Shown here in pieces: positions 2,583 through 55,280 of a stretch of 64,000 nt of DNA. Each line of letters starts with the position of its first letter. The stretch's first letter is position 1. Source of the stretch: a virus. Lineage: Duplodnaviria > Caudoviricetes. The DNA lies in the IMG/VR virus record IMGVR_UViG_2898571807_000002, positions 1 through 64,000 of that record; one strand, 5' to 3'. A program made the translations under genes and the position numbers. The notes under the pieces are model-generated. The model worked only from the letters and a program-made list of their open reading frames with translations, had not been told where the DNA came from and made no database searches.

Positions 2583-2678
2583 ACACGCGCTACCCGGACT
2601 GCACCTGCTGGGCACCCGACGACGCCGAGCCCGAAGACCACGACACCGACTGCGCAGAGAACCCCGGCGCCAGGAGGA

Positions 2679-7660: not shown

Positions 7661-8002
7661 GAGGCTAAAGCTAGGCGAACCGAGTGGGCAAGCACTGCTG
7701 AACTGGGCAAGTGCAACCGGCCGTGACCGTACACGGTCGGGCCGCTAGGGCATCCATGCCCGTGTGTCGCCCTGCGTGCAGCCGACTGGCGAACGGCGGT
7801 CATCCTGCTAAAATGACAAGCAGTGACCAGCCAAAGTCCTCCCACACGGGAGGCGGCCTCTCCGGAGGTGGCAGCGGTTATCCATAGCCACTGCAGCGTG
7901 GCCCCCTTGGGGAAGGGACGCCACGCGCAGATTGGACTCCCTCCGCCGCTGTGGCGTCAGACTGCGGGATGAGCAGGCTGAAGGTTCGAGGGGCTCACCC
8001 CG

Positions 8003-13412: not shown

Positions 13413-13660
13413 ACATCCTCCGCCGCCTCATCCACGCCCTCACCGGCCGCCACCCCTGGCAGATCCAGCCCGCCGACCGCGACATCACCGGGCGGGTCCT
13501 CGGACCGTGGCGGTACTGCCCGATCTGCGGCACCACCGTCGTGCTGCTGAACGAGCCGCCCGCCGACCACCCCGAGTCGATGACCGCCGAACTCCCGCCC
13601 GAGCAGGAGGAGTGGCTCGCCGCGGTCGACCGGGAGCTGTGGGCGAAGGAGGCGGTCTAG
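13409..13660 (+). CDS. hypothetical protein
   Basis: GGAGG RBS; CPICG motif. Confidence 0.55.
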   Translation: MNILRRLIHALTGRHPWQIQPADRDITGRVLGPWRYCPICGTTVVLLNEPPADHPESMTAELPPEQEEWLAAVDRELWAKEAV

Positions 13661-23449: not shown

Positions 23450-24502
23450 GTGACCGAACTTGTCCCCCACGGCACCGAAGGTCTTCCGGTGGCCCGCCTA
23501 CTCACGATCACCGGGCCTCCGAAGGGAACCGCCGACCCCTACGTGGCTTACAAAGACTCGCTCGACAGTCCCGAGTCCAAGACCACCATGACGAGGTGCC
23601 TCGACCGGATCGCATTAATGATTCTTGAGGCGGAGATCGGCGGGCCGCTCCCCCGAGACCACCCACCGGTGACCGGCGCAGGGCGTTCCTGGTGGCTCCT
23701 GCGATATGAGCACACCTCACGTATCCGCGCCCTACTGGTAGCAAGGGGCTGGTCACCCAGCAACGTCAATAAGCACCTGTCGGCGCTTCGCCGGGTCCTT
23801 GAAGAGTGCAAGTTCCTCGGCCTGATGACAGCAGACGAGTACGACGCGGCTGCCCGAATCAAGAACGTAGAGGCTAAGCGGGAGAAAGCTGGCCGGAGTC
23901 TCGACTCGGACGAACTGTTCTCGATGCTGCGCGTGTGCGCGAACGTTGATGGAGCGTCAGGGGTTCGCGATGCCGCTCTGATCTCTGTCCTTTGGTGCAC
24001 GGGCGCGCGACGCGAAGAGGTCGCGAACATCCTGCTTGAGCGCTACGACGCTGGCGCCCGGGCGCTCCGCATCATCGGCAAGGGCAACAAAGAACGCACC
24101 GTGTACATCCATCCGCAGGTACTCCCCCACCTCAACGCCTGGCTGGCGTTGCTCGGGGCGCGCCGCGGTCCGATGTTCCGCCCGGTCGACCGGTGGGGCC
24201 ATGTGCGTTCGGACTCAATGTCCAAGCGCGCGATCGGAATGGTGGTCGCCCGAGTTCGCGCCCGCGCAGGGCTACCGCCACTGTCCACCCACGACTTCCG
24301 CCACACCTTCATCGGTGACCTACTCGACAAGGGCGTGGACCTGGCTACGGTGCAGGCGCTCGTCGGGCACGCCTCTCCTGTCACTACCGCGTCCTACGAT
24401 CGGCGACCAGAGCGCGTCAAACGCGAAGCCGTGGACAGCCTGGACTTCCCTGGGCCGCAGGCTGCTACCCCGCCCCTGGCGGATGACGACACCGAGGAGT
24501 GA
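23450..24502 (+). CDS. tyrosine recombinase (XerC/D-like integrase or resolvase)
   Basis: TGARREE, GKGNK, HDFRH, LVGH, TASY catalytic motifs. Confidence 0.95.
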   Translation: MTELVPHGTEGLPVARLLTITGPPKGTADPYVAYKDSLDSPESKTTMTRCLDRIALMILEAEIGGPLPRDHPPVTGAGRSWWLLRYEHTSRIRALLVARGWSPSNVNKHLSALRRVLEECKFLGLMTADEYDAAARIKNVEAKREKAGRSLDSDELFSMLRVCANVDGASGVRDAALISVLWCTGARREEVANILLERYDAGARALRIIGKGNKERTVYIHPQVLPHLNAWLALLGARRGPMFRPVDRWGHVRSDSMSKRAIGMVVARVRARAGLPPLSTHDFRHTFIGDLLDKGVDLATVQALVGHASPVTTASYDRRPERVKREAVDSLDFPGPQAATPPLADDDTEE

Positions 24503-26934: not shown

Positions 26935-28539
26935 ATGGCCAAGTTCAACCAGACCGGCACCCGTCCCGCGGCATTCAGCCCTGTGAAGACCGAGCAGGTC
27001 CCGTCCGGACGGACGTACGAGGGTGCACCCGGCTACGCCCGCTCTGACGCCCGCTCGGAACTCTTCCTCCTCGCGGTCGCGAACATGGTCGGCGAGGACA
27101 ACTTCTACGAGAAGGCCGTCGACCGGGACGCCCGTTTCCGTGACCTCGTCCACCAGGTCGCCGTCGACGACGTCGAGTGGATGTCCGAGTTCCTGCCGTG
27201 GCTGCGGAGCGAGGCGAACATGCGCTCGGCGCCCGTCGTCGCGGCGCTGGAGGCCGTCCGGGCGCGGCTGGCCGCGGGCCTGTCCGGTGGTAACCGGCAG
27301 CTCGTCGCGAACGTGCTGCAGCGCGCCGACGAGCCTGGCGAGGCGCTCGCCTACTGGACCTCGACCTACGGTCGCGCGGTGCCGAAGCCGGTGAAGCGCG
27401 GCATCGCGGACGCTGTGCAGCGGCTCTACAACGAGCGGTCCCTGCTGAAGTACGACACAGCCACCAAGGGATTCCGGTTCGGTGACGTGATCGACCTCGT
27501 CCACCCGGCGCCGGCGGCGGACAAGCCGTGGCAGGGTGCCCTGTTCGAGCACGCGCTCGACCGGCGTCACGGCCGCGACAGCGAGCCTGCGCTGCCGATG
27601 CTGCTGGCCCGCGAGACGCTCATGGCGGTGCCCGTCGCCGAGCGCCGCGGCGTGCTGCTCGCCGCGGACGGCCCGGAGCGGCTGCGCGCGGCGGGCATCA
27701 CCTGGGAGGCCCTCGCGGGCTGGCTCCAGGGGCCGATGGACTCCGCGGCGTGGGAGGCGGTCATCCCGTCCATGGGGTACATGGCGCTGCTGCGGAACCT
27801 GAGGAACTTCGACGAGGCGGGGGTCTCCGACGAGGTCGCGGAGCGTGTCGCGGCGAGGCTGGCGGATCCGGATGAGGTCGCGCGGTCGCGGCAGTTCCCG
27901 TTCCGGTTCTTCTCCGCGTACCTGGCGGCGCCGTCGCTGCGCTGGGGCCACGCCCTCGACAAGGCGCTCACGGCGGCCACGGCGAACGTCCCGGCGTTCC
28001 TGGGCCGCACCCTCGTCCTGGTCGACACCTCGGCGTCGATGAGTTCCGTGGGCGTCTCGGAGCGGTCGAAGATGACGTACGCGCAGATGGCCGCCCTGTT
28101 CGGCGTCGCCCTCGCCGCTCGCGGCAACGACGTCGACCTCCACGGCTTCGCCACCGGCACCTTCCGTCACGCCGTCCGACGCAGCGCGTCCGTGCTGAAG
28201 GAGGTCGATCGGTTCTGTGGGCGGATCGGCGAGGTCGGGCATGGCACGCAGATCGCCGAGTCGGTCCGAGCGACCTACACCGGGCACGACCGGGTGATCA
28301 TCCTGTCCGACATGCAGACTTTCGGCGGAGGCTGGGCCGGGCCCGTCACCTCTGCGGCCCCGAAGCACGTGCCCATGTACGCCTTTAACCTCGCCGGTTA
28401 CAAGCACGGCGCGATCCCGTCCGGCTCAGACAACCGCCATGAGCTGGGCGGCATGACCGACGCGACGTTCCGGCTTATCCCGCTCCTGGAGGCTGGGCGG
28501 AACGCTGCTTGGCCGTGGGAGGAGCAGGCTGCGGCGTGA
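26935..28539 (+). CDS. Ro60/TROVE-domain RNA-binding protein (Rsr-like) with vWA domain
   Basis: DNFYE, KY..., ITWE, MGYMALLRNLRN, SRQFPFRFFSAY, vWA LVDTSASM, GHGT, IILSDMQ. Confidence 0.93.
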   Translation: MAKFNQTGTRPAAFSPVKTEQVPSGRTYEGAPGYARSDARSELFLLAVANMVGEDNFYEKAVDRDARFRDLVHQVAVDDVEWMSEFLPWLRSEANMRSAPVVAALEAVRARLAAGLSGGNRQLVANVLQRADEPGEALAYWTSTYGRAVPKPVKRGIADAVQRLYNERSLLKYDTATKGFRFGDVIDLVHPAPAADKPWQGALFEHALDRRHGRDSEPALPMLLARETLMAVPVAERRGVLLAADGPERLRAAGITWEALAGWLQGPMDSAAWEAVIPSMGYMALLRNLRNFDEAGVSDEVAERVAARLADPDEVARSRQFPFRFFSAYLAAPSLRWGHALDKALTAATANVPAFLGRTLVLVDTSASMSSVGVSERSKMTYAQMAALFGVALAARGNDVDLHGFATGTFRHAVRRSASVLKEVDRFCGRIGEVGHGTQIAESVRATYTGHDRVIILSDMQTFGGGWAGPVTSAAPKHVPMYAFNLAGYKHGAIPSGSDNRHELGGMTDATFRLIPLLEAGRNAAWPWEEQAAA

Positions 28540-28644
28540 GGAGGTGGGGCCTCGGAGACTTTCTCTGGGGCACCGCTCTTGGCCGTTCGACCTGCCATGA
28601 CCGCATAAGGTCATTGATCGGGCACTCTGCGGCATGTCACGATC

Positions 28645-29460
28645 GTGTGCATGCCCGACGCCACCCCACCCCCCGGAGTCGACACCACCCGCCCCTCCCC
28701 CGCCCGCCTGTACGACTGGGCTCTCGGTGGACGCGACAACTACCAGGTCGACCGAGAAGCGGGCGCCGCCGCGCTCGCAGTCGTGCCGGGGCTCAGGGAG
28801 ACCGCCGTCTACAACCGGGCGTGGTTGAAGCGCGTCGTCCGCTACATGTGCGAGCAGGGCATCCGGCAGTTCATCGACATCGGTTCGGGCCTACCGACTG
28901 CGGAGAACGTCCACCAGGTCGCGCAGCGGCACCACCCGGACGCGCGCGTGGTGTACGTCGACAATGATCCGAGTGTCCACGTGCACGCCAGGGCGCTCCT
29001 GGACGACACGGACCAGGCCGGGCAGACGGCGTTCGTCCTGGCCGATGTCCGCGCCCCGAACACGATCATGGCCACGGCCGAGGTCGACCGGCTGATCGAC
29101 CTGTCCCAACCTGTTGGGCTGATCATCGCGGCCGTGCTGCATTTCGTCGGCGGCAACGATGACCCCGCCGACCTGGTCGCGCGGTTGACCGGGCCGCTCA
29201 GCCCAGGCGGGTACGTCGCAATCTCCCACGCCACCACGGAAGGCGCGTCACCGGAGGCCCTCGCCGCGGTGGATGCGGTGTTCCGGAACGCTTCGGAGTA
29301 CCAGTACGTACGGTCGCGTGACGAGATCGAGCGGATCCTGAACGCCGTGCCCCGCGGGTTGATGATGGACCCGGGGCTCGTCCCGGTGCATGAATGGCGC
29401 CCTGACGAGCGCGTCCCGGAGCCGCCGATGGCGCTGCTCGGTGCCGTGCTGCGCCTCTAG
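28645..29460 (+). CDS. actinobacterial SAM-dependent methyltransferase (Methyltransf_19)
   Basis: PSPARLYDWALGGRDNYQVDR, GIRQFIDIGSGLPT, VVYVDNDP. Confidence 0.9.
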   Translation: MCMPDATPPPGVDTTRPSPARLYDWALGGRDNYQVDREAGAAALAVVPGLRETAVYNRAWLKRVVRYMCEQGIRQFIDIGSGLPTAENVHQVAQRHHPDARVVYVDNDPSVHVHARALLDDTDQAGQTAFVLADVRAPNTIMATAEVDRLIDLSQPVGLIIAAVLHFVGGNDDPADLVARLTGPLSPGGYVAISHATTEGASPEALAAVDAVFRNASEYQYVRSRDEIERILNAVPRGLMMDPGLVPVHEWRPDERVPEPPMALLGAVLRL

Positions 29461-30299
29461 TGGGCCTTTGCCGCGATCTCGGCGAGGCGGCGCCGGGACT
29501 CTTTGACCGGCAACGCTGATGGCAGGATCGCCTCCCACAGGTTGACGAAGGGCGTCACCTGGTTGGGGTCCTCTCTCCAGGTCTCGCCGCCGGCGGAGGG
29601 GATGTAGACGACCTCGGGGTCGATCACGTTCTCGAAACTGAGGTGAGCGAACCCCGGCGGGAGGGGCCTGCGGGCCTCGAACGGGTAAATCGACAGGCGC
29701 ACATTCGGTGAGGAGGCGAGTTTGGCTAGGTGGTCGAGTTGCGCGGCGTGTACGTCGGGGCCGCCGACCTGCTGCCACAGCACTCCCTCTCCGACGACCG
29801 CCCACATGGTGAGCGGGTCTGGCTCTTGGAGGAGCCGCTGCCGCTCGGTCCCCATCGCCGCTGCGGCCTCGCCCCGCGCGGGGTCTTGGTGCAGCGCCCG
29901 CGCGTAGTCGGGTGCCTGGAGAAGCGCCGGGATCTGCACGGGCGCCACGATCCGGATCAGGGACGCCTCCTGCTCAAGGCCGATGTAGATCGATTCGGCT
30001 TCGCTCAGCTTTAGCTTGTGCCTCTCCCACCACCCCCGGTTCCTACCCTCCTCTGCGTAGGTGAGGAGTTCGGCGCGGCGCTGGGGTTCGGCGTCTTCGG
30101 TGACGCCGTACGCGTCGAGGAGCTGCTCGACCAGGTGAAGCTTGGGGAGCTTCCAGTCGTTGCGCTCGATGTGCGTCAAGCTGGACGGCGTCCACCCGAG
30201 TGCGCGGGCGACCTGGTCGGCGGTCTGGCCTGTGCTCTCGCGGAGTCGTAGGAGCTCACGGCTTAGGTGGCGGCGTCGTCCGACGGGGCTGGTTCTCAT
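29457..30299 (-). CDS. XRE HTH plus DUF5753 regulator
   Basis: RRRHLSRELLRLRE..GQTADQVA; IPALLQAPDYA; AVVGEGVL..QVGG. Confidence 0.85.
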   Translation of the reverse strand: MRTSPVGRRRHLSRELLRLRESTGQTADQVARALGWTPSSLTHIERNDWKLPKLHLVEQLLDAYGVTEDAEPQRRAELLTYAEEGRNRGWWERHKLKLSEAESIYIGLEQEASLIRIVAPVQIPALLQAPDYARALHQDPARGEAAAAMGTERQRLLQEPDPLTMWAVVGEGVLWQQVGGPDVHAAQLDHLAKLASSPNVRLSIYPFEARRPLPPGFAHLSFENVIDPEVVYIPSAGGETWREDPNQVTPFVNLWEAILPSALPVKESRRRLAEIAAKAH

Positions 30300-30538
30300 G
30301 GCGGGGCCCCGAATCGTAGGTCTTTTCCTGCTGCGATCTTCAGTCTGGTGCAGGTTATAACCCCACACAAGACCGGGTTTTGAGTCTTGCAAAAAGTCAA
30401 TCGGAGTGGGAGCGTGTCCTGCACGTGCACGGATGTTGCTTGACTCGTCAATAGTGGACAGCAGGTCGCGCTACCAGGCGGCCCTTGACTCAGTCGGACT
30501 CCTCGTGCACATAAGGAGCCCGACCGGAGAGCCAGGCG

Positions 30539-30970
30539 TCACTCCTCGCCTGGAACCTCCCCCTCGACCTCATCGGCAGGGAACACCCGATCCGGGTCCC
30601 CCTCATGGGACACCACCAACAGGAGGGTCCCCTCCAGGTAGCCGTACCGCTCTTGGTCGTCCTTGCTTGCCGACCTAGCGCGAATTCTGTCGCCTGCTTT
30701 GAGCTTCACCACGATCGCCTCCCCGCGCTCGCGGACCCTCCACGGCATGCCCCGCACGGATTCGACGTGGCCCTCAATGCGGAGTACCGCCAGAGCACGG
30801 CGGACGGTGGCCAGGCTGGTCTCGTACTCGTGGCCAAGGTCGGCTTCACTGGGTAGATTCCGGCCAGGCTCCCACTCCCCCGCGACGATCCGCCCTCGGA
30901 GAATGTCAGCAAGTTGCCGATATCTGGCCCGGTCAGATGTGAAGTCGATGCTCCGTTGCATGTGGGGCAC
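30539..30970 (-). CDS. small GntR winged-HTH regulator
   Basis: YRQLADILRGRI...LPSEADLGHEY..SLATVRRAL; CCTAGGATCCTAGG palindrome upstream at 31013-31026. Confidence 0.85.
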   Translation of the reverse strand: MPHMQRSIDFTSDRARYRQLADILRGRIVAGEWEPGRNLPSEADLGHEYETSLATVRRALAVLRIEGHVESVRGMPWRVRERGEAIVVKLKAGDRIRARSASKDDQERYGYLEGTLLLVVSHEGDPDRVFPADEVEGEVPGEE

Positions 30971-31064
30971 CGTATGGAGGCCCAGACACCTCTCAGCCTA
31001 GAGTCCTCACCGCCTAGGATCCTAGGTACAGCGTGCCCTCCTTGGACTGGACAGGGCACAGAGA

Positions 31065-31094
31065 GGCCCCCGGCCATCACCGTGGTCGGGGGCC
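31065..31094. terminator. GC hairpin downstream of the DUF397 gene
   Basis: GGCCCCCGGCCA...TGGTCGGGGGCC. Confidence 0.55.
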
Positions 31095-31107
31095 CCTCCT
31101 CTTCAGA

Positions 31108-31296
31108 TCAGCGCGCGGCGTCGAGGAAGGCTCGCCACTCTGCCGGAGTGAACACCAGCGCCGAGCCTGCGGGGTCTTCCGAGTCCCGGACCGCGACGAC
31201 GCCGGGAAGGTTACGGGCGACTTCGACGCACGTGTCGGCGTCCTTGCTGTGGATGCTCTTGCGCCATTGAGCGTGGGACAAGTCTGGACTGGACAT
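31108..31296 (-). CDS. DUF397 protein
   Basis: WRKSIHS...CVEVA...VAVRDS. Confidence 0.92.
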   Translation of the reverse strand: MSSPDLSHAQWRKSIHSKDADTCVEVARNLPGVVAVRDSEDPAGSALVFTPAEWRAFLDAAR

Positions 31297-31306
31297 GGAC
31301 TGGACC

Positions 31307-32149
31307 TCACATGGATCGAGCGACCGCCTTGATCAGCTCAGCGGACGCATCGCTGTCGAGTGCCTGCTTATGCAGGGACTCGAACCTCACATTACAGTCC
31401 GCGACTGTTTGGGGACTTTCCAGATAAACCACGCCGTGGACACCCTCCACGTAGGCAACGTCCGGGTCAGGGGCGGGGAATTTCAACACGATGAACATGC
31501 CTTCGAGCCCGGCGTGCGCACCGGACGCGGTCTCCAGGATCTGAAGTGTCACGTTCGGGCGGTGTGCCTCGCTGACGAGCCGGTACAACTGGTCACGCAT
31601 CACATCCGGGCCGCCGACAGGGTTGTGGAGGATCTGCTCGCTGAGCACGACGTGCAGACTCGCTGGGCTGCTCGGACGAGTCAGGAGCAACTGGCGTTGG
31701 ACCCGCGCGCGCACCCGGCGTTCGACATCCTCATCATCGGTGTGCGCGATCCGCATGATCTCAGTCGCATACTCCGGGGTCTGGAGCAGGCCAGGAACGA
31801 CCTGCGGCGCCCAGCCGAGCACGGTGTGGGCGGCATCTTCGAGCGCGACGTAAGGGCCGTGAAGGACGTCGGTGTAGTCGTTCCACCAGCCGCGCCGGTC
31901 GACCTCGCGTGCGAGTGCGAGGAGTTCGTCGCGCTGCGGGCGCCGAACCCCGTAGAGGTCGAGGAGCAATTCGACGTCGCGCTCGGAGGGGCGATTGCGG
32001 CCGGATTCGATGTGGGAGACCTTGCCTTGGCTCCAGCCGAGGCTGGCTGCGGCGGCGCCGACTCGGATGTCAGCGGCCTCGCGGGCTTCTCGGAGTCGGC
32101 GTCCAAGGCTGCGGGCTCTGACGGACGGGATGTATGGCGGGGATGTCAT
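31307..32149 (-). CDS. XRE HTH plus DUF5753 regulator (DUF397 partner)
   Basis: LGRRLREARE; VPGLLQTPEYA; VAYVEG. Confidence 0.9.
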   Translation of the reverse strand: MTSPPYIPSVRARSLGRRLREAREAADIRVGAAAASLGWSQGKVSHIESGRNRPSERDVELLLDLYGVRRPQRDELLALAREVDRRGWWNDYTDVLHGPYVALEDAAHTVLGWAPQVVPGLLQTPEYATEIMRIAHTDDEDVERRVRARVQRQLLLTRPSSPASLHVVLSEQILHNPVGGPDVMRDQLYRLVSEAHRPNVTLQILETASGAHAGLEGMFIVLKFPAPDPDVAYVEGVHGVVYLESPQTVADCNVRFESLHKQALDSDASAELIKAVARSM

Positions 32150-32281
32150 GGTTCCAGTGTTCCTGTGCTGGTCGTTACTGCGGAGATAGATGGCCGTAAT
32201 CAGCCAAGGTCATCGCTAATGATTCCTTGCATTCCGTAATGATTACGGTAGAGACTGCTTGCACGACACGTCCACTCACAG

Positions 32282-32728
32282 GTGGTGATCCTCGGTGGTT
32301 ACGGACCGGGCTTCGACGGCACACCGCGACGACCACCCGTCGACGTGACCACCACCATGGACCTCGCGATCGCTCCCCTACAGATCACCTCGGCCGCGAA
32401 GGTCCCCGCCGCCCGCCGCAAGATCCGGAACTTCGCCGCCTCCGTCGTCAGCGCCGACGCAGCAGACGACGTCGAGCTGATGGTGTCCGAGGCGATGGCC
32501 AACGCGCTCATCCATGGTCTCGGCGGCGCCCTCGTCACGGTCATCGTGACCGAAAAGGCCCTGCGAGTGGAGGTCCGTGACCACGGCCCAGGATTCATCA
32601 TCGCTGGCCGTGTCGATCACGGGCGCGGGCTCGCGATCATCAATGCGCTCGCCCCGCGGTGGAAATCCGACGCCGACGAGCGTGGAACGTGCCTGTGGTT
32701 CGAGGTCGACCGGGAGGTTGGCCTGTGA
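32282..32728 (+). CDS. HATPase_c anti-sigma-like ATP-binding protein
   Basis: ELMVSEAMANALIHG, VEVRDHG, GRGL, CLWFE. Confidence 0.85.
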   Translation: MVILGGYGPGFDGTPRRPPVDVTTTMDLAIAPLQITSAAKVPAARRKIRNFAASVVSADAADDVELMVSEAMANALIHGLGGALVTVIVTEKALRVEVRDHGPGFIIAGRVDHGRGLAIINALAPRWKSDADERGTCLWFEVDREVGL

Positions 32729-32993
32729 GCGTGGACGCGCCTCACACCCCGTGCAGCACCCTGCTCGGGGCGCGTCCACCCCTGGGGGGGAGGGTGCGTG
32801 GCCGGGCGCGAAGCCGCCCTGCAGCCCGGTCACGCATCCCCTCAGCACAAAGTGTGGGGGCGTCCCCGCGCCCTCCGTGGGACCGGAACGGTCCCGTGGT
32901 AACGCCCCGGCCGGGTCACGGCAGTGCCAGCTTCGACCCGGCCGGGGCCCACATCTTCAGCCAGCGCCGCGCCAATGACAAGAGGCGATCTGC

Positions 32994-33404
32994 TCAGGGC
33001 CAGTGCCTAGGTGAGGCGACGAACCCGATCGACTCGGCCCGACTAAACGCGGGCCCGCCACCTTCCCGCCGCTCCCGACCAACCGGGATCCACTGCTGCA
33101 CCACGTCCTCGTCCGCACCTGCCTCGCGGAGAAGGTCCGCAGCGATCAGGTGATGCTCGGGGTGCGAGTCAGGCGCAAACCCGATCAGGATCCCGGCGAC
33201 CTCACCGAGCAGATCGACCCGGAACTCCTCGGCCGGAGGATGCAGCGAGCCACGCCGTGGCTTTGCCCGGACGGTCGCGATCTCCCGCAGCTCCGCGACC
33301 CTCTTCTTCCGCTCGTCTTCGGTGGGCGTCCGCCCTCCGTGCCGAGTCGCTACAGCGAACAGACTCGCCGTGATTAGCCGGTCCGGGTCTTGGTGATGCG
33401 CCAT
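32994..33404 (-). CDS. hypothetical protein
   Basis: DLLGEVAGILIG...LLREAGAD...WIPVGRER; start uncertain. Confidence 0.55.
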   Translation of the reverse strand: MAHHQDPDRLITASLFAVATRHGGRTPTEDERKKRVAELREIATVRAKPRRGSLHPPAEEFRVDLLGEVAGILIGFAPDSHPEHHLIAADLLREAGADEDVVQQWIPVGRERREGGGPAFSRAESIGFVASPRHWP

Positions 33405-33610
33405 AGACCGCGAGGCTAGAACAGACATTCGAGATAATCCAGCAAGAGTGCGGCTGAGCAGGGCAAGAGGCGCGAAGATGTCCATGACTGGCACGGTAGA
33501 CGGCGACCTGTGCTCAGCACGGCCGAGCGCCAACCTGTGGATAACACGGTGAAAGACTGCCGCCGCTATGAAGACGTGGGGCTGCCGAGTGGACGCGAGA
33601 TCCTCTTCCA

Positions 33611-33823
33611 GGTCTCCTCGTCCCTGCAGGGGTTCGCAACTGCGAGAACGCTAGGCATGACCCCGGTGCCATCCTCTCCTGCGAGGGTTCGTAACAGGTT
33701 GTGCCCGTGGTCGGGCCACCGCGCTACCTCGTCCTCATCGCCCCTACGAGGGTTCGCAACTCACCGCCCGGCTTGCCCCGCCGTCCCAGAGCAGATCCTC
33801 ATCGGCTCTACAGGGTTCACAAC
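33611..33823 (+). CRISPR. degenerate mini-CRISPR array, 4 repeats and 3 spacers, no cas genes
   Basis: GTCCTCATCGCCCCTACGAGGGTTCGCAAC at 33731-33760; variants at 33611-33640, 33666-33695 and 33795-33823; spacers of 25, 35 and 34 nt. Confidence 0.75.
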
Positions 33824-33940
33824 GACCAGAGCGGGAGCAGCAGCGGGGCGACACCCGTGGTTCCGCAAACACGACAAAAACGCCCTGCCTCCATTCGCCG
33901 AAGCGAAGGAGACAGGGCGTTCGCATGCCGGTCGGGCCTA

Positions 33941-34291
33941 CTACGACGAGCCCGCTTTCACCGCCGGAGCGGGCGTCACGTTCTGCCGCAGCAGCAGCGC
34001 CAGCACGATGCTCGCGAACGCGACACTCTGACCGATCTGCTCAGGAGAGAAATCCAGCTTGAACGCGGCGAGCGCGGCCATCACCGAAGCCAGCGCCCCG
34101 GTCAGCGTGGACACCACGATCGGGCGAGTCATCACCGCAGTCACTGCCGCTGCGAGCGCCGTAGTGATCACGGTGACGGCGTCGACCTGCCCGTCAGAGA
34201 ACGGCAGCCCGAACGACACGAGAAGAGCGACAGCAGCGTTGACCACGTAGGCAATCACGGCAGGCTCGGCTCGGAACCCGAGGATCTTCAT
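33941..34291 (-). CDS. holin
   Basis: MKILGFRAEPAVI..., four TM segments, RQNVTP end; at the end of the lysis region. Confidence 0.75.
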   Translation of the reverse strand: MKILGFRAEPAVIAYVVNAAVALLVSFGLPFSDGQVDAVTVITTALAAAVTAVMTRPIVVSTLTGALASVMAALAAFKLDFSPEQIGQSVAFASIVLALLLRQNVTPAPAVKAGSS

Positions 34292-34361
34292 GGGGCATAC
34301 CTCCCGGCATGCTGAAAGGGGCCCGCCGGGCGGCAGGCCGCGCTGGTTAGAGGACCCGCGG

Positions 34362-35231
34362 TTAGAGATCCCGGGTCTGGAGCCACTGCCTCATCGAGCG
34401 AGCCAGCGCCACATCTGCTTCATCAGGGCGAGGAGCCGGTCCAGGAGGGACGGGCCCCGAGTCGGGGTCGGGTCGAAAGGGATTGGCATCACCGGTGAGC
34501 GCGCTCATCGCCTCACCGAGCCCGTATAGGTCCACCCCGAGCGGCGACAGGTTGGTCGTGTCGTTGATCCATTCGGGGACGACGGCGATCCACGCCTCGT
34601 CCACGGCCCGGCGCCACACTGCCCAGGACATGCGGATGACCTGGCCCCACGTCACAACGTCCAGGCCGTCCGCGTCGTAGCCGACCGCGACGACCGCGTG
34701 CCCGCCGAGGGACCGCCCGCCGGTGCGGGTCCAGCCGAGCCCGGCGTTGAAGTCGTCCATGAGTCGCTCGGTCACGGTCATCCCGACGCCGACCGCGCCG
34801 AACGTGTGGATAGCGGTCTTCACCTCGGCGACGTCAGACGGCTCAACCTCGGCGAACGCGAGCGCCTTGTGCCCAGCGATGCCGGTCTTGCGCCAGTCGG
34901 CGTACACGTCCTGGAGGACCGCGCCGCGGTCCGTGTCCGGACGGCCGGGGCGGTAGCCCGACACCCGCGAGTACGCCGCGAGGACGTCGTCGTCCGTCAC
35001 GGTCACGGTCTCGCCGTCGCCGTACGTGCTCGTGTTCTGGATGTTGTGGCTGACCATCGCGGCGGTGCAGTCGCCGATCTCGTCGTTCAAGAACATCGGC
35101 CAGCCGGTGACCTTGGAATACCAGTCCACCGACGCCAGCGGCGCGGGCGCCGCAGTGAGGAACGGACGCAGCTTCAGCCGCGGCTTGGTGCGGACCGGCG
35201 CGAGCCGACCACCCTGAAACGTGACGGGCAA
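34362..35231 (-). CDS. papain-like (C1) cysteine peptidase
   Basis: NDEIGDCTAA, GGHAVVAVGYD, VTWG; TTG start after GGGGG. Confidence 0.75.
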   Translation of the reverse strand: MPVTFQGGRLAPVRTKPRLKLRPFLTAAPAPLASVDWYSKVTGWPMFLNDEIGDCTAAMVSHNIQNTSTYGDGETVTVTDDDVLAAYSRVSGYRPGRPDTDRGAVLQDVYADWRKTGIAGHKALAFAEVEPSDVAEVKTAIHTFGAVGVGMTVTERLMDDFNAGLGWTRTGGRSLGGHAVVAVGYDADGLDVVTWGQVIRMSWAVWRRAVDEAWIAVVPEWINDTTNLSPLGVDLYGLGEAMSALTGDANPFRPDPDSGPVPPGPAPRPDEADVALARSMRQWLQTRDL

Positions 35232-35246
35232 CGTGGCCCCCAAAAC

Positions 35247-35318
35247 GTGAAAGCCCGGCCTGAAGGCCGGGCACTTGAGATCTTGATGGCCGACTTCAAG
35301 TCAGGAGCCGGTTTGTTT
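35247..35318 (-). mobile_element. short IS200/IS605-end-like hairpin element (non-autonomous remnant)
   Basis: Minus strand ends GCCCGGCC-TTCA-GGCCGGGC-TT-TCAC, preceded by a CTTGA...TCAAG hairpin; no transposase nearby. Confidence 0.35.
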
Positions 35319-35386
35319 AGAACCGCAGGTCAGCGCATTTGACGGCCAATTGATAGGCCGCTACTTGTTGCGCCGTGTCATACGGG

Positions 35387-35656
35387 TCAGTCGACGGCGA
35401 GGTCGTACGCCGCGCACGCCAACTCCGCGGCCTCAGCAAGGCGTTCCAACGCGGCGTCTTTCGCCTTACCGGCTGGTAGGCGAACCACCCACTCCATTCC
35501 GATCGCGAGACACGTCCCTCGCACATGCGCGTGCTCGGCAGGCTGCTCCATGTCGGACAGGGCAGCGAACCGGTGCATGACATCGTCGAGGGTGATCGGA
35601 GGGGCCTTCCAAAGAGCGGCCCGTGCGCGGGCCGTGGGAGCTTTCGAGGGGATCAT
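35387..35656 (-). CDS. diverged Acb2/Tad1-like small helical protein
   Basis: DVMHRF...QPAEHAHVR..L...LPAGKAKDAALERLAEA..LA.AA resembles the Acb2-family pattern from memory. Confidence 0.45.
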   Translation of the reverse strand: MIPSKAPTARARAALWKAPPITLDDVMHRFAALSDMEQPAEHAHVRGTCLAIGMEWVVRLPAGKAKDAALERLAEAAELACAAYDLAVD

Positions 35657-35701
35657 CCCAAGATACCGGGCGACACCGACAATCCCCCGCGACCAGCGAG
35701 G

Positions 35702-36661
35702 CTACTCGGCGAGGCGGCCCTGGATCTCGTCCACGACCTGCCGCGCGAGGTCCGCGGGCAGCGCCGTCACAACCGCTGCAGCGATCGCCGCCGGCGCCAG
35801 ACCCGCGAGCACTCCACGCACGATCGCGTCCTCATCCACGTCCGGCACCTGCTTGCCCAGCGCCGCGACCATCAGCGCCACGTTCCGGATCTGCTGGTTG
35901 GTGTCAGTCAGCAGCCACGCCGCGCGCACCTTCGGATTCGTCTTGTCGCCCGTCGGGTTGTCGAGGATCCCATCGGTCTGCCAGACCACCTCAGCGTCGG
36001 TCTTGGTGAGCGCCATGTCTTCCTCCCCGAGGGCCAGCGCCCTCAACTGATCGAGCGTGCCGCGGTAGGCGTTGACGTCGCACTGCCCGGAGATGCCGGA
36101 CACGGTGCCGCTGGATGAGAACTGCAGGATGCTGATCGGCTCACCGCCGAACGTCGACCACCACGTCGAGGGCGCCTTGCCGTACAGCGCCGCTGGTGAG
36201 CCGGAGCCGGTGACGTAGTGGGACTGCCAGATCGTGTCGAAGAAGCTCAGATCGGGGCGTCCGGTCTGTTCCCAGTACCAGCGCGGGTAGTAGCCGATCA
36301 CCGGGTGCCCACCGGTCCTGGCCTTGAACTCCTTCACCCACTCCCGCGCCGTCGCGGCGTCCGCGCCGGACGCTTCCACATCCAACGCGACGGCGAACCT
36401 CGACACATCCCCTGCCTTGGACAAGAAGAACCGGGCCTGCGCCGCGCCGTTCCCGCCGTGCAGGAAGTGGTACGCGCCCGGGAGGAAACCGTCGCCGAGC
36501 GCGAGCATCCCCGCCCGGTTATGGGCCCACGTCGGGTTGGTGTAGTTCGTGGACTGTGTGACCTTGGAGAACGCGAATCGGATCCCGGCGTGGAACACCG
36601 ACGCCCAGTTCGGGTTGCCCTGATACGACGCGACGTCGACACCGTAGATGGGACCGGCCAC
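35702..36661 (-). CDS. GH25 muramidase endolysin
   Basis: YGVDVASYQG, GAYHF, ALDVE, LQFSS, DVN. Confidence 0.92.
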   Translation of the reverse strand: MAGPIYGVDVASYQGNPNWASVFHAGIRFAFSKVTQSTNYTNPTWAHNRAGMLALGDGFLPGAYHFLHGGNGAAQARFFLSKAGDVSRFAVALDVEASGADAATAREWVKEFKARTGGHPVIGYYPRWYWEQTGRPDLSFFDTIWQSHYVTGSGSPAALYGKAPSTWWSTFGGEPISILQFSSSGTVSGISGQCDVNAYRGTLDQLRALALGEEDMALTKTDAEVVWQTDGILDNPTGDKTNPKVRAAWLLTDTNQQIRNVALMVAALGKQVPDVDEDAIVRGVLAGLAPAAIAAAVVTALPADLARQVVDEIQGRLAE

Positions 36662-53190: not shown

Positions 53191-54327
53191 TCAGAGGGCT
53201 TCGACCGCCTCGCACCAGGCGGCAAGGTCCGCGGCCGGGTCCAGGGCCTTTGACCGGGCGAGGCACCGGTCGGAGGCTTCCGCCCACTGGACCGGGTCCT
53301 GCAGCGCCGTGACCGCCGACACCCACGCCTGCAGGTCGCCGCGCTCGGCGAAGATGCCCGCTTCGGCCAGCGACTCCGACAGGCCCGGGGTGCCGTTCGC
53401 GACCACCGGGATGCCCGATGCCATCGCCTCGACAGCGACACGGCCCCATGATTCGCTCGCCGAGGGCATCAGCAGGATCCGGGTGCGGGCGTACACCTGC
53501 TCCCGCATCTGGTCGCCGGGGAGATGGTCGATGACCTCCACGTTCGGGAGTCCGCCGCGGCGCTCGACCTGGGTGCCGTAGGCGCCCTTCACGCCGAGGA
53601 ACTCAAGGTCGGGAAGACGCTCGGCGAGCTGCCAGAACACCTCGCCGCCCTTGTCGGCGTTCAGGTTGACCAGGGTGATCCGATCGCCCGGGGTGGTGGC
53701 GTAGTCGCTGGTGAACACCGGCGGGCGCACCACGATGCTGCTGGTGGGGCGGAGACTTTCGGTGTACTCGCAGAAGTAGCCTTCCGCCTCGGCCTGCATG
53801 TGCAGCGAGTTGTACACCGCCAGCGCCGTCGACCCGCGGCCGACGTTCCGGAAGATCGTCGGGTGGGTGTTGTGGCACACCGCGACGAACGGCCGTCCGA
53901 GCCCGCGGGCGAGCGCACCAGCCGCCGGGACGTTCTCGTGGTGCGCCACGATCACGTCGCTGGCCTTCGCTGCAGCGGCGAAGTCGAGGCTCGCCGCGAA
54001 CGGCACCACCTTCACCCCGTCGACGTCGTAAGCCTCGTGGTCGGGCGAGTACCGGGACAGCCACACCGTCACCTCGTGGCCGCGGGCCACCAGGGCCCGC
54101 AGCATCGAGTGCAGCATCCACTCCGAACCGGCGTTGTGCCGCGGCGGGTAAGCGTGGACACGAGCGACGACCCGCAGTGGCTTCGCCGCGGTGCCGAGCC
54201 CCCGGAAATGCGAAACCGCCGGGTCCAGGATCTCGTCCTGACCGGCGGTCGACTTTCCCGAGGGCCTCCCGGGCGGCTTGGCTCTGGGCTTGCGGGGTCG
54301 GCTGGCGCGGCGGGGCGCCTCGGTCAC
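53191..54327 (-). CDS. GT4-family glycosyltransferase
   Basis: AGSE, KGG, ESWGRVAVEAMASGIPVV. Confidence 0.88.
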   Translation of the reverse strand: MTEAPRRASRPRKPRAKPPGRPSGKSTAGQDEILDPAVSHFRGLGTAAKPLRVVARVHAYPPRHNAGSEWMLHSMLRALVARGHEVTVWLSRYSPDHEAYDVDGVKVVPFAASLDFAAAAKASDVIVAHHENVPAAGALARGLGRPFVAVCHNTHPTIFRNVGRGSTALAVYNSLHMQAEAEGYFCEYTESLRPTSSIVVRPPVFTSDYATTPGDRITLVNLNADKGGEVFWQLAERLPDLEFLGVKGAYGTQVERRGGLPNVEVIDHLPGDQMREQVYARTRILLMPSASESWGRVAVEAMASGIPVVANGTPGLSESLAEAGIFAERGDLQAWVSAVTALQDPVQWAEASDRCLARSKALDPAADLAAWCEAVEAL

Positions 54328-55280
54328 GAGGTGACGCCCGCGCTGGTGTACTTCACGAACGCCTGCGCGTCACCCATCACGAAGCCGTAGAACGCCTCCG
54401 CGAGCAGCAGCACCAGGTTCTCCTGGAAGGCACTGTGCACGCCGCCTTCCTCATCGATGTACGTCGCCTCCGCGGAGATCCGGATGGTGATGTCCATGCC
54501 CACGCCGTACGCGGCCTGCGACCAGTCACCGCCCAGGGCCCGCAGACCCGAGTCCGTGGAGGTGGACTGTCGGCGCTGCTTGCCGGACACGCCACGCGAG
54601 TACGCCAGCGGCTCACCGATGAGGGTGCCGGCGTTCGCCATGTTCGTGCCGGGCGTGGTGGTGTCGACCAGGATCGGCCGGCCCGTGGTGTCGGTGGCGA
54701 GCAGCAGCTTCGGCTTCAGCCGCGGGTCCGCGACGGTGCCGGTGAAGTCCCAGTCGTCGTCGACGACCAGGTCCATGCCGTTCACCAGGTCCGCCCACAG
54801 ACCGCCGTTGGCCTGGGAGGCGGTGCCGAGCTCGATCGCGTTGGTGGTCGCGGTGAGGTGCTCGGCGAACGGGCCCGCAGCGCCCTTCATCGACTTGCCG
54901 TGGATCGCGGCGTGGTCGAACGCCCGCGCGAACGCCGTCGGCAGGTCCCGCTGCAACTGCGTCCACAGGCCACCGGCGTTGGTCTTCACGACCTCTTCCG
55001 ACACCGGAATCAGCACGGCGATCTTCTTCGGCGACATCTGCTTGACGTCGATACCGCCCGAGGACAGCGGCTTGCGGGCACCCGACCCGACCCAGTCTGC
55101 GGTCGGGACGTCCAGCGGGATCGGGATGGAGGTGTTCGCGTCGATCGACAGCGGCGCACGCTGCGCCAGCGACATGATCGCGCTCTGTTCCACCGACTTT
55201 TCGAAGATCGGGCCCGCGAGCGTCCGCGGGAGGAGATTGTCGTTGACATCCGACAGGAGGATCGGGTCGGTGGTGGCCAC
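54324..55280 (-). CDS. major capsid protein (HK97 fold)
   Basis: PKKIAVLIPVSEE, GDWSQ, AFQENLV. Confidence 0.92.
   Translation of the reverse strand: MATTDPILLSDVNDNLLPRTLAGPIFEKSVEQSAIMSLAQRAPLSIDANTSIPIPLDVPTADWVGSGARKPLSSGGIDVKQMSPKKIAVLIPVSEEVVKTNAGGLWTQLQRDLPTAFARAFDHAAIHGKSMKGAAGPFAEHLTATTNAIELGTASQANGGLWADLVNGMDLVVDDDWDFTGTVADPRLKPKLLLATDTTGRPILVDTTTPGTNMANAGTLIGEPLAYSRGVSGKQRRQSTSTDSGLRALGGDWSQAAYGVGMDITIRISAEATYIDEEGGVHSAFQENLVLLLAEAFYGFVMGDAQAFVKYTSAGVTS

Follow-up and report, generated by a model that had tools for sequence, protein, structure and literature searches.

A Cas-less CRISPR mini-array of Actinomadura type I-B origin in the cargo slot of a prophage

The stretch of DNA analyzed here (the window; 64,000 nucleotides) is the first 64 kb of a 100,976-bp virus record, and at positions 33611-33823 it carries a short, Cas-less CRISPR array. 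Judged by its repeats, the array represents a piece of an Actinomadura type I-B CRISPR array, so that we regard its origin as settled. It belongs to the known class of viral Cas-less mini-arrays and repeat mimics, and the original prediction of a CRISPR-derived mini-array in a phage is supported. As to what the array may do, two readings stand roughly level. The first, which we favor tentatively and rate just short of an even chance, is that it gives rise to crRNA-like RNAs that would occupy the host type I-B Cascade, competing for it and/or guiding it; the second is that it is an inert relic.

Four repeats of 29-30 nt were confirmed on the plus strand, and the coordinates, the repeat counts, and the spacer lengths (25, 35, and 34 nt) given in the original prediction hold, as do the identities of 23/30, 21/30, and 25/30 to repeat 3 (R3). 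Repeat 1 (R1, 33611-33640) is degenerate, with seven changes relative to R3, all within positions 1-19 (23/30), while its last 11 nt, including the handle TTCGCAAC, are intact. Repeat 2 (R2, 33666-33695) is degenerate as well (21/30 ungapped, i.e., 9/30 positions differ from R3), and its handle, TTCGTAAC, has one change. R3 (33731-33760) is the canonical copy, with 30/30 identity to Actinomadura array repeats. Repeat 4 (R4, 33795-33823) is 29 nt long and matches R3 at 25/30 positions with a 1-nt deletion in the loop; it agrees at nine of its first 10 nt, and its handle, TTCACAAC, has one change. Thus, the handles read, in order, TTCGCAAC, TTCGTAAC, TTCGCAAC, and TTCACAAC, those of R1 and R3 being perfect and those of R2 and R4 carrying one change each, and near identity of the repeats does not extend across the whole array, since only R3 is canonical. 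Spacer 1 (33641-33665) is 25 nt long, which is below the 34-40 nt single-spacer intervals measured in two arrays of A. rupiterrae, whereas spacer 2 (33696-33730, 35 nt, with an inverted repeat inside it noted by eye) and spacer 3 (33761-33794, 34 nt) fall within this host range. The repeat-spacer period is accordingly 55, 65, and 63 nt. Only spacer 3 has both a perfect handle before it and a largely intact repeat after it. The arrangement R1-spacer 1-R2 and R3-spacer 3-R4 resembles two units composed of a first repeat, a spacer, and a second repeat.

The motif GGTT[CG]RYAAC is confined to these four sites when both strands of the entire 100,976-bp record are considered, and the array is therefore not a product of chance. 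No further degenerate copies were detected up- or downstream of it (local alignment vs random windows, P=0.43), no coding GC-frame signal was found in 33300-33940, and a search of 32500-35000 against Rfam gave nothing near threshold. The repeat hairpins are weak and not better than those of shuffled sequences, the most stable being that of R2 (-7.5 kcal/mol), and neither single-repeat nor whole-array folds are distinctive, apart from a terminator described below.

The source of the repeat emerged from comparisons with host genomes. R3 is identical at 30/30 positions to array repeats of A. rupiterrae, A. roseirufa, A. syzygii, and several other Actinomadura genomes, and differs by one mismatch from array repeats of Microtetraspora, Sphaerisporangium, Streptosporangium, and others. 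When one genome of each prokaryote species was scanned for pairs of the 3' motif spaced as in a CRISPR array, at least 120 loci were obtained, and most of those listed were actinomycete arrays. In A. rupiterrae, two arrays flank a complete I-B operon (cas6-cas8-cas7-cas5-cas3-cas4-cas1), and the repeats of both depart from R3 in the first two to three bases and in one loop base. The resemblance to actinobacterial type I-B repeats, which the original prediction had put forward, is thereby borne out. Searches with NCBIfam assigned the products of this operon to Cas6, Cas7 (Cst2/DevR, I-B), Cas5b, Cas3, Cas4, and Cas1, and a large protein without an NCBIfam family occupies the Cas8b position. A related Cas system is also present in the host lineage, as the original prediction required: within the genus Actinomadura, the repeat occurs at three or fewer mismatches in 36 of 104 genomes and a Cas6 of this type in 26 of 104. 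The absence of cas genes, first stated for the window, extends to the whole 100,976-bp record, in which tblastn with seven A. rupiterrae I-B Cas proteins revealed no homologue at E≤0.01. A literature search with the repeat string returned unrelated primer matches only.

The A. rupiterrae array lying just 3' of the adaptation genes (cas2-proximal) reads GT..CTCATCG...GCAAC in the operon direction. Since this array runs with the operon, we take GTCC...GCAAC, the plus strand of the window, as the sense orientation of the repeat; this orientation is also supported by a common 5' flank, TCS, at three host-spacer matches considered below (two significant and one weak).

Besides such complete loci, orphan mini-arrays and solitary repeats of similar degeneracy are common in Actinomadura chromosomes, some of them in genomes without a detected Cas6, which makes a decayed or inert donor plausible. 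These orphan mini-arrays resemble the array described here in belonging to the same repeat family, in having one to five copies with perfect and degenerate ones mixed, and in lacking adjacent cas genes. However, those that we examined, with the proteins of the record as query, have no phage structural genes within 10 kb. Two further arrangements were seen in hosts. In one genome, two near-canonical repeats stand head to head on opposite strands with a 4-nt overlap (L153/L154, G492:C1:4447191-4447246); this genome has no other copy of the repeat, and a DUF397-like gene lies about 650 nt away. In at least three Actinomadura I-B loci (L130, about 7825-7855; L176; L181), a degenerate repeat ending in GGGGTCACC(A/G)C is found 200-300 nt upstream of cas6, pointing away from it and adjoining a promoter-like block that is conserved. 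Possibly, this repeat is a CreR/CreA-type, crRNA-like regulator of the host.

The changes in the repeats are unevenly distributed. When R1, R2, and R4 were pooled, the first 19 nt had changed at 19 of 57 positions and the last 11 nt at two of 33 (Fisher P=0.0038; binomial P=2e-4). The difference between a conserved 3' part and a drifted 5' part, which the original prediction had noticed, is therefore statistically real. The intactness of R3 is improbable too, with P of about 2e-4 to 1e-3 if every repeat had decayed like R1 and R2. The last 11 nt are predicted to comprise the Cas6 cut site and the 8-nt handle. Among the Actinomadura array variants listed, the last 7 nt are invariant, and it is there that the handles of R2 and R4 are each changed.

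An exact-protein match places the record on a 617,324-bp contig of assembly GCA_008121305.1, and it is therefore an integrated prophage; the ends of the record coincide with gene ends. Its minus strand encodes a siphovirus set of terminase, portal, head and tail proteins, followed by a GH25 endolysin, a peptidase, and a holin, and genes for DnaB, Rad52, and a P22-type antirepressor are found at 82-101 kb. The portal protein shares at most 44% identity with those of cultured actinophages, and a peptidase-based search for related loci gave no viral relative. The array occupies a 455-nt gap that runs from the terminator side of the holin gene (33941-34291, minus strand; phrog_9752, 5e-20), the final gene of the virion and lysis operon, to a conserved accessory gene for a protein of 131-163 aa (32994-33485, minus strand, alternative start at 33404), which is divergent from the array. 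A hairpin followed by a U-run was identified by eye at 33873-33921 on the minus strand (arms 33879-33892 and 33908-33921; a simple scan missed it), and we interpret it as an intrinsic terminator that ends the lysis operon, shielding the array from antisense late transcription.

On the other side of the array, TANNNT hexamers at 33498 and 33418 (minus strand) lie 7-8 nt upstream of the two start candidates of the accessory gene, 33485 and 33404, a spacing that would fit its leaderless transcription. The HATPase_c_2 gene (32282-32728, plus strand) is the first of a conserved accessory module that continues leftwards with DUF5753 and DUF397 regulators, Methyltransf_19, and TROVE/Ro, and a tyrosine integrase is encoded at 23450-24502 (plus strand), so that the array lies about 9 kb inside the integrase end of the element. 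A prophage of Actinomadura sp. NPDC049382 has the same order from lysis genes to accessory module, terminating at an integrase, and a Jiangellaceae MAG shares this order up to Methyltransf_19. Because the synteny on both sides is common to other prophages, the array is inside the element and not in host flanking DNA. The module itself (26935-33485: the 131-163 aa gene, HATPase_c_2, DUF5753, DUF397, GntR, Methyltransf_19, TROVE/Ro) follows the lysis cassette in Actinomadura and Jiangellaceae prophages as well (L143 and L203), and many actinomycete I-B arrays have paralogous WhiJ-like gene sets at a distance of no more than 8 kb.

The array itself is not shared. In relatives, the slot between the holin gene and the conserved gene is filled by small opposite-strand genes, and the closest ones have no DNA homologous to segment 32806-33948; no array is present in any of six related, syntenic prophage loci. 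Neither the canonical repeat core nor the two-repeat pattern was found in the other viral contigs scanned, and blastn of 32000-36000 against phage and plasmid collections gave no match. A metagenomic relative whose peptidase is 82% identical to that of the record (L144) has a solitary repeat-like unit in its cargo region (2593-2622, minus strand), in which 18 consecutive nt are identical to the repeat core. The unit is without the CAAC end and sits inside an 8-bp inverted repeat between two small genes, and at a distance of about 1.3 kb there is a gene with a weak match of the Aca2 type; it is possible that the unit represents a Racr-like element.

Signals for expression of the sense strand were sought as well. 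The leaders of A. rupiterrae finish in a conserved motif holding a -10-like TACTGT, but upstream of R1 there is neither similarity to these leaders nor the conserved leader end motif. TANNNT does not occur on the plus strand in 32900-34000, its only copies in that interval being the minus-strand ones at the conserved accessory gene, and a consensus scan revealed no sense promoter, although both scans are blind to alternative sigma factors and to read-through from the HATPase_c_2 gene.

The relation between this repeat family and the phage lineage can also be viewed from the side of the host. We compared 854 unique spacers from the fetched arrays with the record and obtained two significant matches, one at 54730-54763 (plus strand, 31/34) with a spacer of a Streptomyces sp. 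I-B array (L102) and one at 13542-13572 (minus strand, 29/31) with a spacer of an Actinomadura-genus array (L180), as well as a third, weaker match at 94521-94550 (26/30) with a spacer of another array of that genus (L177). The first lies inside ORF 54324-55280 in the head-gene block. The match at 13.5 kb falls in the left-hand, plasmid-like part of the record. The 5' flanks at the three matches are TCC, TCG, and TCG, which suggests TCS (TCC/TCG) as a candidate PAM or flank motif for the repeat family. Since I-B arrays of this family hold spacers against the record, the prophage has a motive for counter-defense.

From these data we infer, conditionally at each step, how the array could work. 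An I-B array fragment would be carried as cargo in the variable slot right after the lysis cassette of the prophage, and its plus strand would be transcribed in the lysogen. Host Cas6 would then cleave each repeat 8 nt from its end, and the units with perfect 5' handles (R1-spacer 1 and R3-spacer 3) could yield crRNA-like RNAs that would load into the host I-B Cascade. Either these RNAs would occupy Cascade as useless guides, in a decoy or competitor effect, and blunt I-B immunity against the phage, or they would direct Cascade to targets absent from databases. This reading is favored by the identity of R3 to host repeats, the full I-B operon flanked by repeats of the family, the conservation of the 3' parts, the intactness of R3, the supported repeat orientation, the location in a cargo slot that holds small opposite-strand genes in relatives, the terminator shield, the host I-B spacers matching the record, and the precedents of degenerate CreTA repeats, Cracr arrays, and non-targeting crRNAs described below. 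Against it are the lack of a leader and of a sense -10 element, the absence of the array from relatives and other viral contigs, the low identity of three of the four repeats to the consensus (70-83%) with their weak hairpins, the frequent failure of Cas6 on diverged repeats in the haloarchaeal model, the two changed handles, and the many orphan degenerate mini-arrays in Actinomadura, which make an inert donor plausible. Transcription, processing by Cas6, loading into Cascade, and any effect are inferences.

The same observations can be turned the other way. An inert relic, i.e., a piece of a decayed orphan host array brought into the cargo slot by illegitimate recombination, with neither sense expression nor effect, is a serious possibility, although we place it below an even chance. 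It would account for an array that is unique to its lineage (absent from the six relatives and from the other viral contigs scanned), that is devoid of a leader and of a sense-strand -10, and that has no spacer target in phage, plasmid, viral, metagenome, family, or genus searches, and many similarly degenerate orphan mini-arrays and solitary repeats in Actinomadura, some without a detected Cas6, could have served as donors. However, uniform neutral decay would not be expected to produce the 3' skew (P=0.004) together with an intact R3, unless both were inherited from a donor array still under selection. The retention of the array in a size-limited phage genome, behind a terminator and in a moron slot, also speaks against a relic, a point that is suggestive but weak.

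The search for spacer targets, proposed with the original prediction and including cas promoters, found none. Within the record, where no match had been seen by eye in the window, none of the spacers has a self-target at ≤33% mismatches. The array and its flanks gave only chance-level short matches in phage and plasmid collections (E≤10); 20-23-mers of spacers 1-3 were absent from viral contigs and those of spacers 2 and 3 from metagenome contigs; spacer 2 had no match at three or fewer mismatches in 401 family genomes, nor did spacer 3 in 104 genus genomes including their prophages; and the spacers matched none of the fetched loci, related prophage loci included. The genomes searched for spacer 2 included one flagged as unpublished, on which none of our conclusions depends. 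A match of spacer 1 at 19/25 in coding DNA of A. roseirufa, 1 kb from an array, was rejected as a chance event (E=0.9). As few Actinomadura phages are represented in the databases, the negative outcome is weak evidence.

These searches bear on the idea that the array is an inter-virus weapon, whose full-length spacers would guide host I-B interference against rival phages or plasmids and so provide superinfection exclusion. Spacers 2 and 3 do fall within the host length range of 34-40 nt, published viral mini-arrays mostly aim at related viruses (PMC11656645), and missing targets are to be expected since so few Actinomadura phages are in any database. Nevertheless, spacers 2 and 3 are unmatched in the 401 family and 104 genus genomes, respectively, the 20-23-mers are absent from viral and metagenome contigs, nothing was found in related prophage loci or in the record, and published mini-arrays have repeats identical to those of the host, whereas here this applies to one of four. 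We consider such a weapon very unlikely.

A regulator of the Cracr type, in which pseudo-spacers partly complementary at the PAM-proximal side to the promoter of a host cas gene or of a CRISPR-guarding toxin would make Cascade repress its own expression, is improbable too, but we rank it ahead of the weapon; on present evidence both are less likely than the mimic or guide and the relic. In its favor, the layout is like that of published prophage Cracr arrays (degenerate repeats, kept handle, a short spacer of 25 nt, multiplexing), I-B systems and Actinomycetota are among the targets predicted in that work, and the conserved degenerate repeat that precedes cas6 in several Actinomadura loci points to crRNA-like regulators encoded by hosts. 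Yet, when the spacers were compared with ±1.5 kb of cas6 in 24 Actinomadura I-B loci, no spacer performed better than shuffled ones despite a cas6 promoter region conserved among the 24 loci. The longest seeds near cas6 were 10 nt, including one of spacer 1 in a single locus, and were dismissed as chance-level.

One match inside the record deserves mention. The first 13 nt (PAM-proximal) of spacer 3 match 100786-100798 on the minus strand, a site that is outside the window and belongs to the first gene of an operon with the P22_AR_N antirepressor. Its 5' flank, TGT, is unlike the TCS of the host-spacer matches, and its P of about 0.02 (from shuffles and from an empirical host-spacer null) is not significant after correction for three spacers. 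It could be a candidate site if the prophage used host I-B Cascade as a programmable repressor, with R1-spacer 1-R2 and R3-spacer 3-R4 binding partial matches without cleavage, and repression there would stabilize lysogeny; this is the least probable of the proposals considered here.

The array shares features with several described systems and departs from each. Viral mini-arrays and solitary repeat units (reviewed in PMC11656645) are likewise Cas-less, short, located in a virus or provirus, built on a host-derived repeat, and presumed to use host Cas proteins in trans; however, theirs have one or two spacers, host-identical repeats, and targets mostly in related viruses, whereas here there are three spacers, one canonical repeat in four, and no target found. 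Prophage Cracr arrays of degenerate repeats silence the host CRISPR system or compete with it, and their predicted targets include I-B systems and Actinomycetota (bioRxiv 10.1101/2024.10.29.618823). Like the present array, they are prophage-borne and multiplexed, with degenerate units keeping an 8-nt handle and one short spacer, and the 1-nt loop deletion of R4 resembles their published psiR3. However, their defining feature, a pseudo-spacer match (at least nine PAM-proximal positions) to a cas or toxin promoter, was not found in the 24 Actinomadura cas6 regions.

Racrs (PMC10651486) are also repeat mimics in prophage intergenic regions, but they are solitary, have a promoter no more than about 250 bp away, and are often neighbors of acr genes, while this array has four units with spacers, no recognizable sense promoter, and no identified acr neighbor. 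The same study reports that RNAs which contain a repeat or are non-targeting compete for Cas proteins, so that even a crRNA without a target lowers interference (PMC10651486). In the haloarchaeal I-B CreTA system, functional ectopic repeats are degenerate, the first keeping the Cas5-binding handle and the second losing it; the degeneracy protects against recombination, and Cas6 often fails on diverged repeats (PMC9458426). The parallel to CreA lies in the I-B type and in a decay that spares the handle of the first repeat, since here R1 and R3 are perfect and R2 and R4 changed. On the other hand, CreA belongs to the CRISPR-Cas locus of the host and is next to a toxin gene, whereas this array is in a prophage with no toxin partner identified, and R2 is strongly diverged where the CreTA psiR2 is usually kept.

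The mixed regulatory and competitive role suggested in the original prediction is not supported and stays a hypothesis, because no target, cas-promoter match better than shuffled controls, sense promoter, leader, or array in relatives was found. Actinobacterial I-B systems are little studied and Actinomadura phages almost unknown, and this work provides for them a defined repeat family with a supported transcription orientation, a candidate TCS flank, and two spacer matches tying I-B immunity to this phage lineage. If the array is a relic, it documents a flow of DNA from host CRISPR arrays into the cargo slot of a prophage. An active array would represent CRISPR mimicry or hijack involving an actinobacterial I-B system, and the handle-sparing decay of repeats described for host CreA RNAs would then be at work on a phage.
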